In this document: one piece after another, positions 9,748-63,608 of the stretch | Layout of the letters: each line of letters begins with the position of its first letter | Numbering within the stretch: position 1 is the stretch's first letter | Assembly (NCBI GenBank): GCA_030265395.1 | Contig: JARFYF010000104.1 | Span: 61,869,215 to 61,933,214 of the forward strand | Direction: 5' to 3' | DNA: 64,000 nucleotides | DNA from: Rhina ancylostomus | Lineage: Eukaryota | Notes under the pieces: model-generated | What the model was told of the DNA's origin: nothing | Seen by the model: the letters and a program-made list of their open reading frames with translations, nothing else | The model's database searches: none | Position numbers and translations under genes: made by a program

Positions 9748-9965
9748 GAATACTGAAATCCTATGATTTATAATAAAAATAGCAAATGCTGGAAACACTC
9801 AGTAGGTCAGGTAGCAAAACAGAGTTAATGTTTCTGATGAAGGGTCTCAGACCTGAAACATTATCTCTGTTTCTCATTCCACAGGTGCTGCCTGATCTGT
9901 TGAGTGTTTCCAGCATTTTCTCTTTTTGTTTCAGATTTCTAGTATTTGTATTTTTTTATTATTTT
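9748..9965 (+). mobile_element. Fold-back Penelope-type element with hammerhead-like core
   Basis: Arms aaatgctggaaacactcag / ttgagtgtttccagcattt; ctgatga(9834-9840)-agggtctcagacct-gaaa. Confidence 0.7.
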
Positions 9966-47266: not shown

Positions 47267-50200
47267 TACTCCTTGTGAACAGCAGAGCTGCTGCTTTCCC
47301 AGATTAAGGTGTTATGTAAAGATCTCTTGTTAATAGCTTAAAGGCCTGAAAGTTCATATCTCCGTATGTTGACCAAGAAAATAAAATCCTATTGTTCCAT
47401 GTACAAATACTGTTTCTTATATAAAAAAGGAACATGCATGGAGTGTAAATCTCCAGTGGAGTTCAACAGAAAATTGATTGGAAAGGTCAGGTCTTGAAAG
47501 ACAACTGGTAAGTTGAGATCTCACTCAGACGTAAAATATTAAACGGTAAAAACCAAATAGTCTCAGGGTATTACTTCAAAATAAGCTGGGATAGGCAGAC
47601 AAAAAACCAAGTTAAATTGTTCAAAACTAAATTTAAAGCAATTGGTAAAATGTCTTGAAGTGTGAAGTGAATAGTATTTGGAATAATGTACAGGCATAAT
47701 TATAGTAATAAACACATCACCAGCATTCAAAACGTTATAATGGCTGAACTAGGATACTAACCGATCATGTTTGCTGCATGTAAACAGTATTCCAAGTCCA
47801 CAAGACTTTACAGTTCCACAGTTTTATTACACAAAATCTTTTCCTCTCTTGTTTCCACATGCCTTCTTCTCTCAGCTCCTCAGGGTATTAAGTTATAACT
47901 TGGGTACAGTTCACTTGGAAAAGTAACCATTTATTGTGTTTTAGCTTGGAACAGCACTGTAGAATCTAAACCAGCCAAAAACCTCCTCACCTGATGTTTG
48001 CAAACATGCATTTTTAGCAGTACAATTGGAAAGCAATTAGCAACTTTGCCAATTTCCTCTTCATTATCCTTAGGGGCAGAGATCGACCGAGATCAAGTAC
48101 CTCAGATCATGGCCTGAATGTTATTGATTTGTGCTACCTCTTACCAACTGAAATATCAGAAACCTTCTGATATTTTTGTCTTGATCATGTCAATTTCACA
48201 CAAAATAACACAGTTGAAACAGAAATTCGAACTGTAAGCTTTGAAACAGATAGCAAGGAAATTTAAAAACCTCTATCTGCTGGTTTACTGAAGTCATTTG
48301 AAATAAATAACAGCGAAAGCAATTTCGGACAAATGCATTATGCTTAAATTTTCTTATATCCCATGGTACAATTTCAGGATCTCAGATCATTTTGATAATG
48401 AAAATCTTTCAAAGAAGATATTCAGTTTGATTTTGGGTTTGAAGTTATAAAAGTATTTTTGTAAATTTATGCTTTCAGTGTGGAGCTTTGCCCATCAAGA
48501 GCACATTTGTGAAATTATTGTTCACAGTTAGGATTAACCAGAATGAATGATTTATACAGACCTGTCAGTGATATATTAATTATCTCATTAAAATTAAACC
48601 TAAAAGTAGTCCATGTTCACTTTTTTTGGACCGGTATAAAATATTTTGCTTGTCAAACTTTCAAGTTTTGGCTAAGAATATTTCAGTTTGCCTGCGAGAG
48701 AAAGTATGCTAATAGAAAGGCCTTAATGCATTTTGCAAGTAGTATTAGTGTGAACATACCATTCAGTCATGGTTTAACAGAATAATACAGCGGTTAATGC
48801 AGTCTTTCTTAGAAGCAATAGCAAAGATAATTGAGCTTAATAACTACCCTACTGTTGTCAAGATAAGTGACAAAGAGACATTGAATGGTTTACCATTGTG
48901 TAGCTTCATGCAGTTCAATAGATTTACACAATGAAGTGGGTGCCAAAGAATTTCAAGCGTCCAATACATTTTTGTGATTGTTCCTCCTGTCTATTAAAAA
49001 TTTGAGAACGCGAAGAACACCAGTAACTGCATACAGGTGCTTACCATTTGTGTGAAAGTTTTACATAAATTTTCTTTAGAATTGACACAAAAATAATACC
49101 CATAATATTATATTCTTAATTGGCAGCCCTTGTAATATTATTTTCTGAGTAATAATAGATTTCAATTAAATATAAATTACTATTTCAGCATTTGTCTGTG
49201 ATTTCCAAATTTCCCTTCAATTTTCAAATAAAAATACCCTTGACAGATCCAATCATAAAAAGTAATGCTATGGGAAAAATTGTCTCATCTGTGGGGCCAG
49301 ATCGTAACCATCTTGATCTTAAAAGTGATCATTTTATAATCAACTGATGAGATGCAGGAAAATGTTGAACCTTTGCAAAGATACCAGGGTTTGTATTAAA
49401 AAGGAGATAGTTTGGAACATTCTGGAAAAGTTTCACTTTGCAGACTAGAAGAAAATCTAGCTGTAAGGACAGTAAATAATTCATGTCTGTGATGACGTCC
49501 TGGTAGTGAAATGAAAAAAATAGGCAACATTGTCTTATGTTTCTGCCTCCTTCTTTATACCTGATCCACCTGGTATAGGAAAATGTGCCTTGGGGAATAC
49601 CTTGAGGGAACAGTGAAGGAGGTTAATATTGTTTAGACCAGTGGTAAAGAAATGTTGCTAATTACCAAGGGCGGTGACTTAACTTTTACCAGCATTCAAT
49701 GAAAAGAGATTATGTCTCAGCCAGAACCTAATGTCAGATGTATAGTTGGAAATGATGAAAACTCTGATGGCAGGTAGAGAGGTGAAACTAGGTGCCATCA
49801 TTGTACAAGTTAAACACACACTGCAGATCATTTTGTCATTGAGATTATGTAAATTTTGAAGGAAAGGGACTGAACACAGAGTTTAGCTGTAAACCCAATG
49901 TGAGGCCAAAGGTACAGAAGAGAGATTTTTGAAGGATACAATACATAGTAATGTTGTAGCAATAAGTAGAGCTGGAGACACTGGATTTGTGTTCAGGCAT
50001 TGCAGAAGATAATATTTTGGAGAATAACAGAATGGTTGATATGACCTGGCATTTTAAGAAGGCAGTCAGGAGAAAAGGTAACAATTGATACTAATTCACA
50101 AAACTATTCAAGCAAGATTCATGGGGTTATTGCCCACATAGAGCACGTAGTTAATGGAAGTAAAATATCTAATTTCAATTCAAGGCTTATTTCTAAAGTA

Positions 50201-50974
50201 GATTTTGATATTTCATTTGATCCCAATTAGTATAATGGAAAGAACTTCCTCCTTCATTGGTACTGCTAAGCATGCATGGACAGCAGTGTTTGTACATAGT
50301 ATTCCACTTCCAAAATGTTTTCTATTAAACTTAATGGAGTCAAATTTTGGAGTACAACCTGTAGCAATCGTTTGACAAAAGTGGATGAGAATAAATATGT
50401 TTGAAATCAGTTAATTAAGACTCACATCACATCCAAATATGCTTGTCTGTTTGTCAAAATGAATGATGGATTTTCACACATTGTTCAACTTGTTTACAAC
50501 TTCATATTGTGAATAAAGTGTGAGAGGAATGTTGCAATCATTACACACACATTCAATTATTTGTAGCTTTTTTTGTAGGTTTTCATGCCCTGGCCTGGTA
50601 CATTGATTTACCTGAATTCCATAGTGATTTTAGATATATTTTGGTCTGTATTGGTAAACTTTTTTATCATTATCTTTACATATAGGACAAAATAAAACTT
50701 TTACTGATGGACAAATGTAGCTGCCTTTGTTTCAAGATGTATCCCTGGTAACACAAAGAAATAGCCCACTGAATATGACAGTTTTGTGCGGATTAGAAGG
50801 AAGGTAGTGACATAAGAAAATATGAGAAATCACAAAGAATCAAGTACACAATATTGATTATACCACCAATAGCGTTAATACAATGTCTCACTATACATCA
50901 CTATGGATTGGTAATTTTTCCTATCAGAATGAGGTCAGTACAAACAATACCATTACAATGCACCAGGCTACTTT

Positions 50975-51712
50975 GGAGGATCAGCAGTGGATGGAGTCAG
51001 CAGCTTTCAATCCCTGGGCATTAACATATCAAATGACCTGTCCTGGGCCCAGCACATAGATGCAATTATTAGGAAAGTGTGCCAGTGTCTTTACTTTCTT
51101 AGGAGATTCAGTAGGTTTGGCTTGTCACCGAACACTCTAACAAGCTTCTGCAGATGTACTGTTGAAAGTATCCTGACTGGTTGCTTCATGGTCTGGTCCG
51201 GCAATTCAAATGCACAGAAACGTAAGAAGCTACAGAGAATAGTGGACTTTGCCCAATACATCAGAGCACATTTCTCTCCACTACTGGTAGTATCTACAGG
51301 AGATACTGCCTCAAGAAGGTAACATCTAACATCAAATATCCCTGCCATCTGGGCCTTGCCATCTTTTTGCAGCTGCCATTGGGCAGGAGGTACAGAGCCT
51401 GAAGTCCCACACCACCAGGTTCAATAACAGCTACTTTCCTTCAACCATTCATTTCTTGAACCAACCTGCAAAACCCTAATCACTACAGTTTAACAACACC
51501 ATGACCACTTTGCACTGAAATGGACTTTGTTTTTCTTTGTTCTCATTGTGTTTTCTTTTTAAAATTTTGCATAATTTATGTGTAATTTACATTTTTTCTT
51601 GTGGATGCTATTTGTATAGTGCTATGTGGCTGTGATGGCTGCTGCAAGTTTTTCATTGCACCTGTGCATACACGTAATTGTGCCCATGACAATAAACTTG
51701 ACTTTGACTTTT
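50975..51712 (+). mobile_element. Rex1/Babar LINE 3' portion, different subfamily
   Basis: SSFQSLGINISNDLSWAQHIDAI.RK..QCLYFLRR...CRCTVESILTGCF.VW.GN; ends aataaacttgactttgactt. Confidence 0.9.
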
Positions 51713-51764
51713 GAAGATGGTAACTTCTTATTGTTCAGATAATAATAATGTCATTTGAAATGTT

Positions 51765-51960
51765 GAAGATGAAAACCACTATGATGCTGGAGGAACTCAG
51801 CAGGCCAGGCAGCATCCATGGAGAAAAGCTGAAGAAAGGTCCTGACCCGAAACGTTGACCGCCTGCTTTTCTCCACGGTTGCTGCCTGGCCTGCTGAGTT
51901 CCTCCAGCATCATCATGTTTTTCATCTTGATTCCAGCATCTGCAGTCCTTTATTTCTCTA
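51765..51960 (+). mobile_element. Fold-back Penelope-type element with hammerhead-like core and 12-bp TSD
   Basis: Arms of about 60 bp (51766-51829 / 51865-51928); loop ctgaaga-aaggtcctgaccc-gaaacgtt; atttgaaatgtt at 51753-51764 and 51961-51972. Confidence 0.8.
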
Positions 51961-52520
51961 ATTTGAAATGTTAATCAGGGCCCTGTCTGCTCTTTCAGAT
52001 TAACAAAACTGACCCATATATACAACCTCAAAGAGATTAAAGTTGTTTTTAATGATGATATATTTACTCACAATGCACAATAGCACAGCTAGTAGAGTTG
52101 CTGCCTCACAGCTTCAGTACCCAGGTTCAATCCTTAACTTGCATAGAACTTGCACCATCTCCCTTAGACAGCATGGTTTCCTCTGGGTGCTCCAGTTTCC
52201 TTACAAATTCCAAAGATGTTAAGATTGGTGGGTTAATTGGCCCCGTAAATTCTTCCTTATATGTAGGTGAACGGTAGAATCTGGGGAGAGTCAATGGGAA
52301 TCAAATAGGATTAGTATAAATGGGTACTTGATGGTTGGCATAGACCCAGTGGGCCAAAGGGCTTGTTCCCATGCTATCTGACTCTGTGACTATCACCTCA
52401 AAATGGTAATCTTATTGCCTGCTGGATTTGGAAGCTCACTTTATGCGAATTGGCTGCTGTTTTCTCCTTTTCAACACTGGTCTTCAAAGAATCGATAAAG
52501 GTTTTTGGAATATCTTGAGA
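51961..52520 (+). mobile_element. SacSINE1/DeuSINE-like remnant split by a V-SINE
   Basis: gttaatcagggccctgtctgctctttcag ... tgcgaattggctgctgttttctcc..cttcaaaga. Confidence 0.5.
52072..52392 (+). mobile_element. V-SINE/HE1-like SINE
   Basis: cacagctagtagagttgctgcctcacagc..ggttcaatcc..ggtttcctctgggtgctccagtttcc..gggccaaagggcttgttcccatgct. Confidence 0.85.
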
Positions 52521-54877
52521 TTCTTTCATTGCTTTGCTTCCTTCTGTCAACAAGTACCATCCATGAAGTTTGAAGTTATTATGTACAAAATTAATATTTC
52601 TATTTGTTCTATGACTATAGTGAAAACAAAGTACTTGGGATTATAATTGAAATTATAGTTTTTATCTGAATTGCTGCAGATGCAGACAAAGGCAAAGAAA
52701 ATGTTGATCAATAACACATTTTGTTTTCTCTACATTGCTAAAATCTTTTGTGCATTACTGACTGGTTTGAGAAACAGCTTACACTTAAGTGAATCTTTTT
52801 ATCACAGTTTGTTGGTCTGCCAGGGAAAAGATCAAGTTACACCTTTAATCTTTGAAACATAAATTTCATTACATGAAGAGTAGTTATCAGAAAGGTGGAA
52901 GGTGATGATTTTGGAGCGTTCACTGTCAGAATCAATTTAAGCTGATTATTAGTTCCCCTTTGATATGTATGATTTAACAGTTTAATCAGATGTCGAAAGT
53001 ACAGTGATAGAGAAAATTATAGGTTCCCTATGTGTCAAGGGAAAGAATTTTAACTGCTTAGGACAGATAAGGGATCCATTTTGACACAGGTGTGGGAAGG
53101 CCAGTCAGTTTAATTTCAATCAATTAATGAAAGTCTCCTCTCCAGGCTTTCCAAAATTTAATTGCATTCTACAAAGTGAAACCATCTATCACATGTGTCC
53201 AACTTAACTAACAGAGAATCTGATGAATCTAAGTTTTTCAAATAAGCTTTTGCTAAATGGAAAAGAAACAAATATTTCAATTTTTTAAAAGGATAATTGA
53301 ACTGTGTTTTCAACTGGGTTCTGGGTGACAGAACTATTCTGCTTTTAGCCCCCAATATCAATTAAAAGTCTCAGATCATTAAAATATATATTTTATGCAG
53401 GTAGAACAAAAAGTTATCCATTCACTGTTCTTGTAAATACAAATAAAAGATTCATATGTTCACTCTTTGTAACAAAATTGTTTAACACCTTTTATTAGAA
53501 CACTTCTGTAATCATTGTTGAAACAGGAATCATGAATCTGTTATTCCATACTCATAATGCCATTGCCCAGAGAAATTCAGATCAATAAATGTCATGAAAG
53601 CTGCAGAAAAATAGGAAGGTAGCAGAGTATATCTACATCTGCTTTAAGTAGATGGCAGAGACAGGATGTGGGAAATTCATAAGCTTATGGAAATGGGGGT
53701 GCCATGACATCAATAGGACCCCAATGCAATTTGGAAGTCATAGAAAGTCATTCTGCCAATTTTTTTTTGTGTTGGCTGTGCTGACTTTGGCCAAAAGTCC
53801 CTTGAGATCTCTGTGGTAGAAATTGGACAGCACGAATAAACATTTTGGAAGCTATTAAATATTGACAGATTTTTCTTATTCAAATCAATAGCCAAATCGT
53901 GCTGAGCTTTGGGAAACAAAGGAAATGAATACTTTCTTTATGTTATTCATTTCAACTCTGGAGTTACACAGTGGTGAATCATATACAATGAAAGTCAATG
54001 TAATACTTGCTTTCAGTATGACTGCTATAACTGCACTAAAATATTGTACAATCACTCAAGAATGTTTTGAGAAAGTCAACTTTGTCTTTTTAATTCTCTG
54101 GTAATCAAATTGGATGAATAGTTTTCTTTAGATTGGGGAATAAACCAATGTTTCTTCCACACTTTGTGCAGGTTTTGTTCAATACAAATGTTTCAAAGGC
54201 ATGTTTGTTAATTTTCCACATACATATTATTATTTCCAATAAGCATGGATCTTTTATTCCACCTTCAGAATAACAAAATAATGTTCTTCTTTTTCTAACT
54301 AGCATTATTTTTTAAGAGGAATGGAAATATAAGTGGAAAGAAAATGAGTAATATTTCTGTGGCGAGCTTGCGACAGTTTTTGGTAATACCCCTGTTATTA
54401 TGTTGTTCTTGATATTTTAGTGCCTTTGCTACTTTAGTATTTTGTTTTATCATGATATAGTGTATGAGCTGGAAACTTACAATACTGGTGAGCCCAAGAA
54501 AGCAGGAGTATCTCTCCATCTACCGGTAGCCCAAGAGTGGAAATCTGTATACTATTATTGAAAGCAAGTGCAAAAATGTGATTTCTAAGTTGTATTCTAT
54601 GCTGCAGCTTATTGTGTTATCTGAACCCTTTGATTATATCACTGCTCTGTAATCATTTCCATGACCTTACAGTTCACTATACTTAACATTATTACAGTGC
54701 TCTGTATTTTTTGGTTAAACCTTACTTCAATAGAGTTAAAGATGAAATGCAAAGATTCTGTTGCAAACTTAGATTTTTGGCTGTTAAGGGTACAGAATCT
54801 TCCAATTTTACAATTTTGAGAAATTATGCTAAAACTGATGTTCTTTGCCACATTTTATTGTTTATTTGAGAATCAAA

Positions 54878-54988
54878 CACTGCAGATCGTGAACATCAGA
54901 AATAAAAACACAAAATACTGGAAACACTCAGCAGGTCTGGCTGCATCAGTGGAATCTGACCTGCTGAGTGTTTCCAGCATTTTGTTCA
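54878..54988. mobile_element. Fold-back element with the core deleted
   Basis: acaaaatactggaaacactcagcaggtc / gacctgctgagtgtttccagcattttgt. Confidence 0.7.
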
Positions 54989-56227: not shown

Positions 56228-56330
56228 ACACTGTTTCTCTTCCCACAGATGTGGCCTGACCTGCAGATTATTTCCAGCATTTCCTGTGTTTATTTTAGAT
56301 TTCCAGCATCTGCAGTATTTTTGATTTTCA
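56228..56330 (+). mobile_element. Right arm of the fold-back element family
   Basis: ctgtttctct..cacagatg..cctgacctgc..tttccagcattt..agatttccagcatctgcag. Confidence 0.65.
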
Positions 56331-63404: not shown

Positions 63405-63608
63405 ACTATTTCCACTCTCCCCTTCTCCATCTGTCTATCACCTCTCCTCACCTGGATCACTTGATAGCTCTTTCTTCACCCCTTCCTTCACCTTTTTATA
63501 CTATCTCCCCTCTACCTTTCAGTCCAGACAAAGGGTCTTGACCCGAAATGTTGACTGTCCATTTCCCTCCACAGAAGCTGCCTGACCTGCAGAGTTCCTC
63601 CAGCACCT
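63405..63608 (+). mobile_element. Penelope-type terminus: pyrimidine-rich tract, hammerhead-like motif, right arm
   Basis: cagtc-cagacaa-a-gggtcttgaccc-gaaa-tgtt-gactg at 63520-63557, then gctgcctgacctgcagagttcctccagca. Confidence 0.65.

Follow-up and report, generated by a model that had tools for sequence, protein, structure and literature searches.

Insertions of Penelope-like retrotransposons (PLEs) commonly carry an inverted, 5'-truncated copy of the element and a one-sided tail of 30-40 bp, as set out in PMC8557442 and PMC8969392, and the unit in print consists of that inverted 5'-truncated copy, the 30-40-bp tail and a target-site duplication (TSD) of 8-10 bp (PMC3846280, PMC8557442). 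Pen2a_Av of Adineta vaga is described as having an inverted terminal repeat (pLTR), a 31-bp tail, a 9-bp TSD, and TATA and Inr-like motifs (PMC3846280). The promoter reported for Drosophila Penelope is internal and TATA-less (PMC2377424); therefore promoter type varies among PLEs. Minimal type I hammerheads of metazoan PLEs occur, according to PMC4209133, as solo motifs and as opposite-strand pairs 100-700 bp apart, which are probable truncated PLEs. It was reported that the Anolis PLE protein PAc (Poseidon of Anolis carolinensis) both cleaves and extends the two strands, that reverse transcription starts internally at two sites bounding the tail, and that hammerhead cleavage is not needed (PMC11167929). 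Animal non-LTR retrozymes, as portrayed in PMC7229834 and 10.64898/2026.07.22.740005, form head-to-tail tandem repeats with canonical active hammerheads, from which circular RNAs arise.

We analyzed a stretch of 64,000 nucleotides from Rhina ancylostomus (referred to below as the window), in which an earlier, sequence-only reading had picked out a hairpin element. The insert is very likely a single EN+ PLE insertion, in which two short head-to-head pLTR copies were likely joined during integration and the inherited hammerhead is predicted to be inactive. Its inverted arms, at 51766-51829 and 51865-51928, are 64 nt each, 92% complementary and separated by 35 nt. Both TSDs lie on the forward strand, the left one at 51753-51764 and the right one at 51961-51972; they match exactly over 12 nt and over 14 nt with one mismatch (left TSD 51753-51766). 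For the 220-nt stretch the calculated folding energy is -121.3 kcal/mol (z = -12.6 on one strand and -13.9 on the other), a value which none of 200 shuffles equaled. The near-perfect inverted arms of about 60 bp and the exact 12-bp flanking repeat noticed earlier were thus both confirmed, the latter being beyond chance in shuffled pairings. The insert, 196 nt long, is asymmetrical: the right arm bears an unpaired, one-sided tail of 32 nt (51929-51960, forward strand), which in two copies of partial-tandem layout (L032, L119) is followed without a break by the element's 5' region.

Family positions were counted from the first C of CTGAAGA in the hammerhead core (position 1, window 51829). On this scale the left part is an inverted 5'-truncated pLTR copy (51767-51829, reverse strand, family positions 37-99), whose outer end is the short end site defined below, and the right part is a sense pLTR copy (51829-51960, forward strand, family positions 1-132), which terminates at the long end site and begins some 4 nt downstream of where transcription is predicted to start. 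The inverted copy shows 3 differences from the family majority over 63 nt and the sense copy 4 over 132 nt, and the two arms have no difference in common. An ADAR-type scar was also considered for this copy and excluded, none of the 7 differences being A-to-G on the hairpin strand.

The insert had been suggested to sit inside an older SINE; this placement was not borne out. It lies between the 3' end of a LINE (50954-51712, forward strand), which is located about 40 nt upstream, and a SINE-like dispersed repeat (52081-52400, forward strand), which starts about 110 nt downstream; both are neighbors outside the insert. The LINE, which we take to be of CR1/L2 type, consists of a decayed RT C-terminus (Pfam PF09004, E 4.6e-6) and a short tandem tail, and is high-copy, with more than 12,000 first-look candidates genome-wide. 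The SINE-like repeat, presumably tRNA-derived, has several copies in the window and in the fetched loci. The flanks between these two repeats gave 0-1 matches among the fetched loci and low depth in four public runs. When the same four runs, with thin flank coverage, were inspected for the empty site, no insert-skipping joint was seen among the 15 joints listed (520 further). Older pLTR relics of the PLE, 69-80% similar, were also present in the window at 1229-1309, 9786-9916, 54871-54953, 56231-56316 and 63506-63605, and that at 9786-9916 is another fold-back PLE pLTR.

The center of the insert had been read as a hammerhead-like core, and this held in part. The boxes CTGAAGA (51829-51835), GGTC/GACC (51838-51847), GAAA (51849-51852) and CGTT (51853-51856) provide CUGANGA, GAAA and UH in the proper order with a predicted cut after 51856, and a relic of a minimal type I hammerhead, with its core boxes intact and a palindromic CG at 15.2/16.2, can be delimited at 51829-51859 (forward strand). 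What did not hold is the helical frame. First, stem I has 0 of 4 pairs in register, against 3 in the family majority, since its 5' strand was removed by the junction. Secondly, window position 51837 (family position 9) is A where G10.1 is expected (G in 96 of 116 aligned pieces), leaving an A.C mismatch instead of G10.1-C11.1 at the base of stem II. Loss of the stem I 5' strand and the G10.1-to-A change together make the window hammerhead, an inherited motif, predicted inactive. Within the whole insert the pair probability of stem II is about 0.001, the long hairpin displacing it. A scan of 50000-54000 against Rfam with E up to 10 returned no hammerhead model; the best matches were microRNA models of 20-49 bits, far below the cut-offs, which are caused by the hairpin.

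In contrast to the window copy, the majority sequence of the family represents a minimal type I hammerhead with an extra base before stem II, G10.1-C11.1, the palindromic CG and a 3-bp stem I, and the isolated family motif folds into this form. All core boxes are kept in 47 of the 116 aligned pieces that span the motif (some loci overlap), and 17 pass all tests. Among 64 motifs, nearly all of one family, that were compared for stem covariation, decay was seen at CpG, and two-sided changes were confined to single cases.

The arm is the terminal repeat of a PLE. A genome search with a 34-nt arm word gave 2,037 exact matches, or about one per Mb, and a search with the 32-nt tail gave 198, the control giving 0 in both cases. 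When the whole insert was used as the query, the best 40 of 2,053 first-look candidates were scored, and the best-scoring ones proved to be hairpins that end at the same 3' position but differ in their centers. This best-match set is skewed towards the query, and sampling was therefore done by the short exact anchors, yielding 87 loci from the first 100 tail matches listed (of 198), and 90 loci with 96 arms from the first 100 arm-word matches listed (of 2,037). The tail-anchored copies extend in the 5' direction by variable lengths, into an ORF. In L037, L053, L082, L095 and L100, the repeat is continuous with an ORF that encodes RT followed by a C-terminal GIY-YIG endonuclease. The RT piece matches PF00078 (E 7.9e-6) and the C-terminal piece PF01541 GIY-YIG (E 0.0011), both below the gathering score, and a search of the ESM Atlas with the latter piece likewise returned GIY-YIG clusters (0.96-0.97). 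A PDB sequence search with the RT piece gave 0 matches, and a Pfam search of short ORF pieces from L037, L082, L087 and L097 gave no family. A CX4CX2C linker is legible in the translations of L082, L085 and L100, and two Cys between the GIY and YIG boxes in those of L082 and L100. A CX2-5CxxC linker before the endonuclease is common to Neptune and Nematis PLEs in the account of PMC8557442, and the linker found here, as read from the translations, points to a Neptune or Nematis type. No full-length intact parent element was present among the recovered copies. The family has decayed by 4.3% at non-CpG columns and 28.5% at CpG columns. Assembly gaps were very often observed in or beside it (L007, L011, L021, L034, L044 and many others).

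The copies end at two fixed 3' sites. Of the 96 arms, 6 are interrupted by N; in the 90 that could be scored, the 3' end falls at 94-99 in 38 cases, at 128-137 in 39 and elsewhere in 13. These short and long end sites, about 34 nt apart, bound the known PLE tail. The 5' ends are variably truncated: 113 uncensored ones among 183 arms are spread from -147 to +99, and 47 of these 113 arms adjoin an inverted piece. The other 70 arms were censored, mostly by N, and therefore long and inverted copies are under-sampled. We scored 93 inverted pairs, leaving out pairs that touch N. A flanking repeat of at least 7 nt was found in 56 of the 93, against a mean of 0.9 (max 3) in shuffled flank pairings, and 54 pairs carry a TSD of 9-16 nt with a mode of 14. 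It can be seen that all 54 TSD-flanked pairs combine one short with one long end; 37 of them come from the anchored samples, 20 being tail-anchored, where the long end is forced, and 17 arm-anchored, where the tail is not forced. The remaining 39 pairs have no TSD of at least 9 nt; they include pairs with two long ends (L002, L010, L027) and pairs scored as two short ends (L126, L150, L203, L208), in two of which the tail appears by eye to be deleted. A TSD of at least 8 nt was seen in 8 of 62 simple copies (control 0.15). Among non-inverted TSD-flanked copies the short end is found in L134, L210, L219 and L248 and the long end in L211; since such simple copies end at either site, the short site is used on its own.

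A two-ended priming mechanism is, in our judgment, a fairly probable account of how such pairs arise. The GIY-YIG endonuclease would nick both target strands about 12-14 nt apart, and each nick would provide a primer for the copying of unprocessed element RNA, with reverse transcription starting at the short site (96-99) from one nick and at the long site (130-132) from the other, in the way shown in vitro for the Anolis PLE protein. These cDNAs would then grow towards each other, stop early and be joined with little or no homology, and gap fill of the nick stagger would generate the TSD. In the window copy, the tailed cDNA would have reached about the 5' end of the RNA and the other would have stopped at 37. 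If the cDNAs were joined in this way with run-off, the hairpin would be a DNA by-product and not a replicating RNA.

The same PLE origin can be combined with a different step, in which one nucleic acid folds back to prime itself, or switches template, and so gives rise to the mirror arm. For the Adineta PLEs, such self-priming on an antisense template is proposed in PMC3846280 on the grounds of palindromes found where the inverted copies join. The pLTR of the present family does contain palindromes, at -8..+7 and in the hammerhead, and some junctions fall on them (L010, L139, L222). Moreover, arms of one insertion have 23 variants in common, mostly at CpG columns, against about 13 expected (1 of 500 shuffles); this slight excess is compatible with a common source RNA as well as with copying by fold-back. 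Overall, arms within one insertion are 89.6% alike and shuffled arms of different insertions 88.6%, a near-equality that speaks for the main reading; the pattern fits one source element followed by neutral decay. The junctions themselves are less favorable to fold-back: the overlap at the window junction is 1 nt, overlaps or gaps across 41 contiguous TSD-flanked hairpins span -7 to +35 nt, and 26 of the 41 have extra bases in place of overlap. By itself, fold-back also does not account for the outer limit of the mirror arm, which is the short site, where simple TSD-flanked copies end as well. We therefore regard fold-back as an unlikely competitor of two-ended priming.

Very little weight can be given to the interpretation first offered for this locus, in which a retrozyme-like hairpin RNA, discrete and non-autonomous, would be processed by its own hammerhead and spread as a unit with the help of a PLE. 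TSD-flanked hairpins of 170-200 bp are indeed numerous, the core boxes of the window copy are intact, L009 of the best-match set has a near-identical junction, and non-LTR retrozymes have been linked to PLE pLTRs (10.64898/2026.07.22.740005). A mobile unit, however, is contradicted by the inner junctions, which are variable. The window's 23-nt inversion junction has 1 match in 2.2 Gb, at the window locus itself, and the 41 hairpins have 40 distinct junctions. All 25 hairpins from the anchored samples, which are 63-327 bp long, differ in their junctions, and none of these lies within 2 nt of that of the window; L009 alone has the window's break points, plus 7 extra bases. Copies also grade into kilobase PLE fragments, and in the window the ribozyme is broken at the junction, with stem I absent. 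Tandem hammerhead arrays were not found among the first 100 arm matches listed, where there was one same-strand neighbor pair, at an assembly gap, and 5' ends are not in excess at the cut site (see below). The discrete unit is thus largely refuted.

It is slightly less probable still that two independent PLE insertions abut here or that a local inverted duplication occurred later: the family is dense, as the density of the arm word illustrates, but a single TSD brackets both arms, and the short-end/long-end layout recurs in every TSD-flanked pair. A DNA transposon MITE with terminal inverted repeats, which the long inverted arms, short non-coding center and flanking direct repeat would suggest, has a negligible chance of being correct, because the 32-nt one-sided tail means that the arms are not terminal on both sides, TSD length varies over 9-16 nt instead of being fixed and short as for a DNA transposon, 5' truncation is variable and the repeat is continuous with the RT and GIY-YIG ORF; the Penelope-related retro-insertion that had been preferred to a MITE from the outset is upheld by the same features.

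Within the reading as a PLE insertion, the 5' ends carry further information. They pile up at -4..+2, with 21 in 494 arm-positions versus 41 in 5,735 downstream and 31 in 4,631 upstream, a rate 5 to 6 times that on either side (Poisson p about 1e-10, for an interval picked after seeing the data). A TATA-like box lies at -34 and an Inr-like motif has its A at -3, 31 nt apart start to start (e.g. L022:1636-1667, minus strand); this region from -34 to -3 is absent from the window copy. We incline slightly to the view that the window's sense cDNA ran off the 5' end of an RNA whose TATA/Inr-type start lies 3 nt upstream of the hammerhead core. A 16-nt palindrome at pLTR -8..+7 is, however, centered on the pile-up, with further palindromes in the hammerhead; because of this coincidence the start-site reading is not the sole one, and two readings remain. 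Among the 25 anchored hairpins, a stop at -4..+2 was seen in nine short-ended arms and in no tailed arm, counts which the tail anchor may bias. The window copy has the opposite, rarer layout, its tailed arm stopping near -4..+2.

Two other sources of the pile-up were rejected. A hammerhead-cleaved template as the main route would place 5' ends at the predicted ribozyme cut (28/29), and there they are at background level (5 in 833 arm-positions at 26-32). A spliced template was considered because the site resembles a 3' splice site, but the 21 copies lack a common upstream exon and six directly adjoin the TSD.

Three RNA runs of a relative, all from one study, were compared with one family copy, L022. 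Both strands are covered, and 85-91% of the reads continue into unlike sequence; these RNA reads look like read-through of genomic copies. Against this heavy background, no place where many reads start or end was found, including the predicted start, and there were many different opposite-strand joints. A head-to-tail joint (119 back to -5; L022:1514-1638) was observed in 11 reads of RNA run X19 and in 1 and 3 reads of the two others; it is not at the ribozyme cut site and is probably a tandem genomic copy in that relative.

In read-through RNA, the palindrome at -8..+7 is predicted to pair with the first box of the hammerhead with a probability of 0.96-0.99, and for RNA starting at -3 the predicted pair probability of stem I is only 0.1-0.23. 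We put forward, tentatively and with considerable doubt, that the thousands of short copies may preserve, as fossils, the steps of the PLE cycle: the PLE enzyme, as a dimer, would prime both nicked strands at the two boundaries of the tail, close to the 5' end of the mRNA that encodes it, the cDNAs would often run off at the TATA/Inr start in a strong-stop-like manner, and the 16-nt palindrome would mask the ribozyme core in read-through RNA and not in promoter-started RNA. If this is true, the hammerhead would be a start-site-gated switch.

This kind of object is already in print, and the locus is one decayed PLE insertion among thousands. A search of a limited body of literature on PLE stubs in cartilaginous fish and on twin priming in PLEs gave nothing relevant among the entries listed; the family may already have a name in Repbase or Dfam. 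That such stubs mimic MITEs, pre-miRNAs and retrozymes is a useful warning. The family statistics bear on an open point, namely how PLEs make inverted repeats and tails, and the pairing of a short with a long end within a 9-16-bp TSD, together with the 5'-end pile-up, leads to concrete predictions for an in vitro PLE system.

Compared with Pen2a_Av and other EN+ PLE units, the family has in common head-to-head pLTRs, a 32-nt one-sided tail, a TSD of about 10-15 bp, 5' truncation, a pLTR hammerhead, a TATA-like box followed by an Inr-like motif, and a parent ORF with RT then GIY-YIG. It differs in that the window copy consists of pLTR parts alone with no ORF, that the TATA-to-Inr spacing is 31 nt, and that the start of the ORF was not located in the pLTR. 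The family majority corresponds to the minimal PLE hammerheads depicted in PMC4209133 in its core boxes, extra nucleotide before stem II, G10.1-C11.1, 15.2/16.2 palindrome and 3-bp stem I, whereas the window copy departs from these in having lost the 5' strand of stem I and G10.1 and in having a single core. Like non-LTR retrozymes, the window insert is short, non-coding and PLE-related and bears a type I hammerhead; unlike them it occurs once, in head-to-head form, and its minimal motif is broken. The closest biochemical parallel is found in PMC11167929: the two RT start sites of PAc match the two genomic 3' end sites of the family, and its independence of hammerhead cleavage matches the missing ends at the cut site. 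PAc differs in belonging to the Penelope/Poseidon clade and in an ORF that starts in stem II, and, in the parts of that work considered here, inverted insertions are not derived from two priming events.
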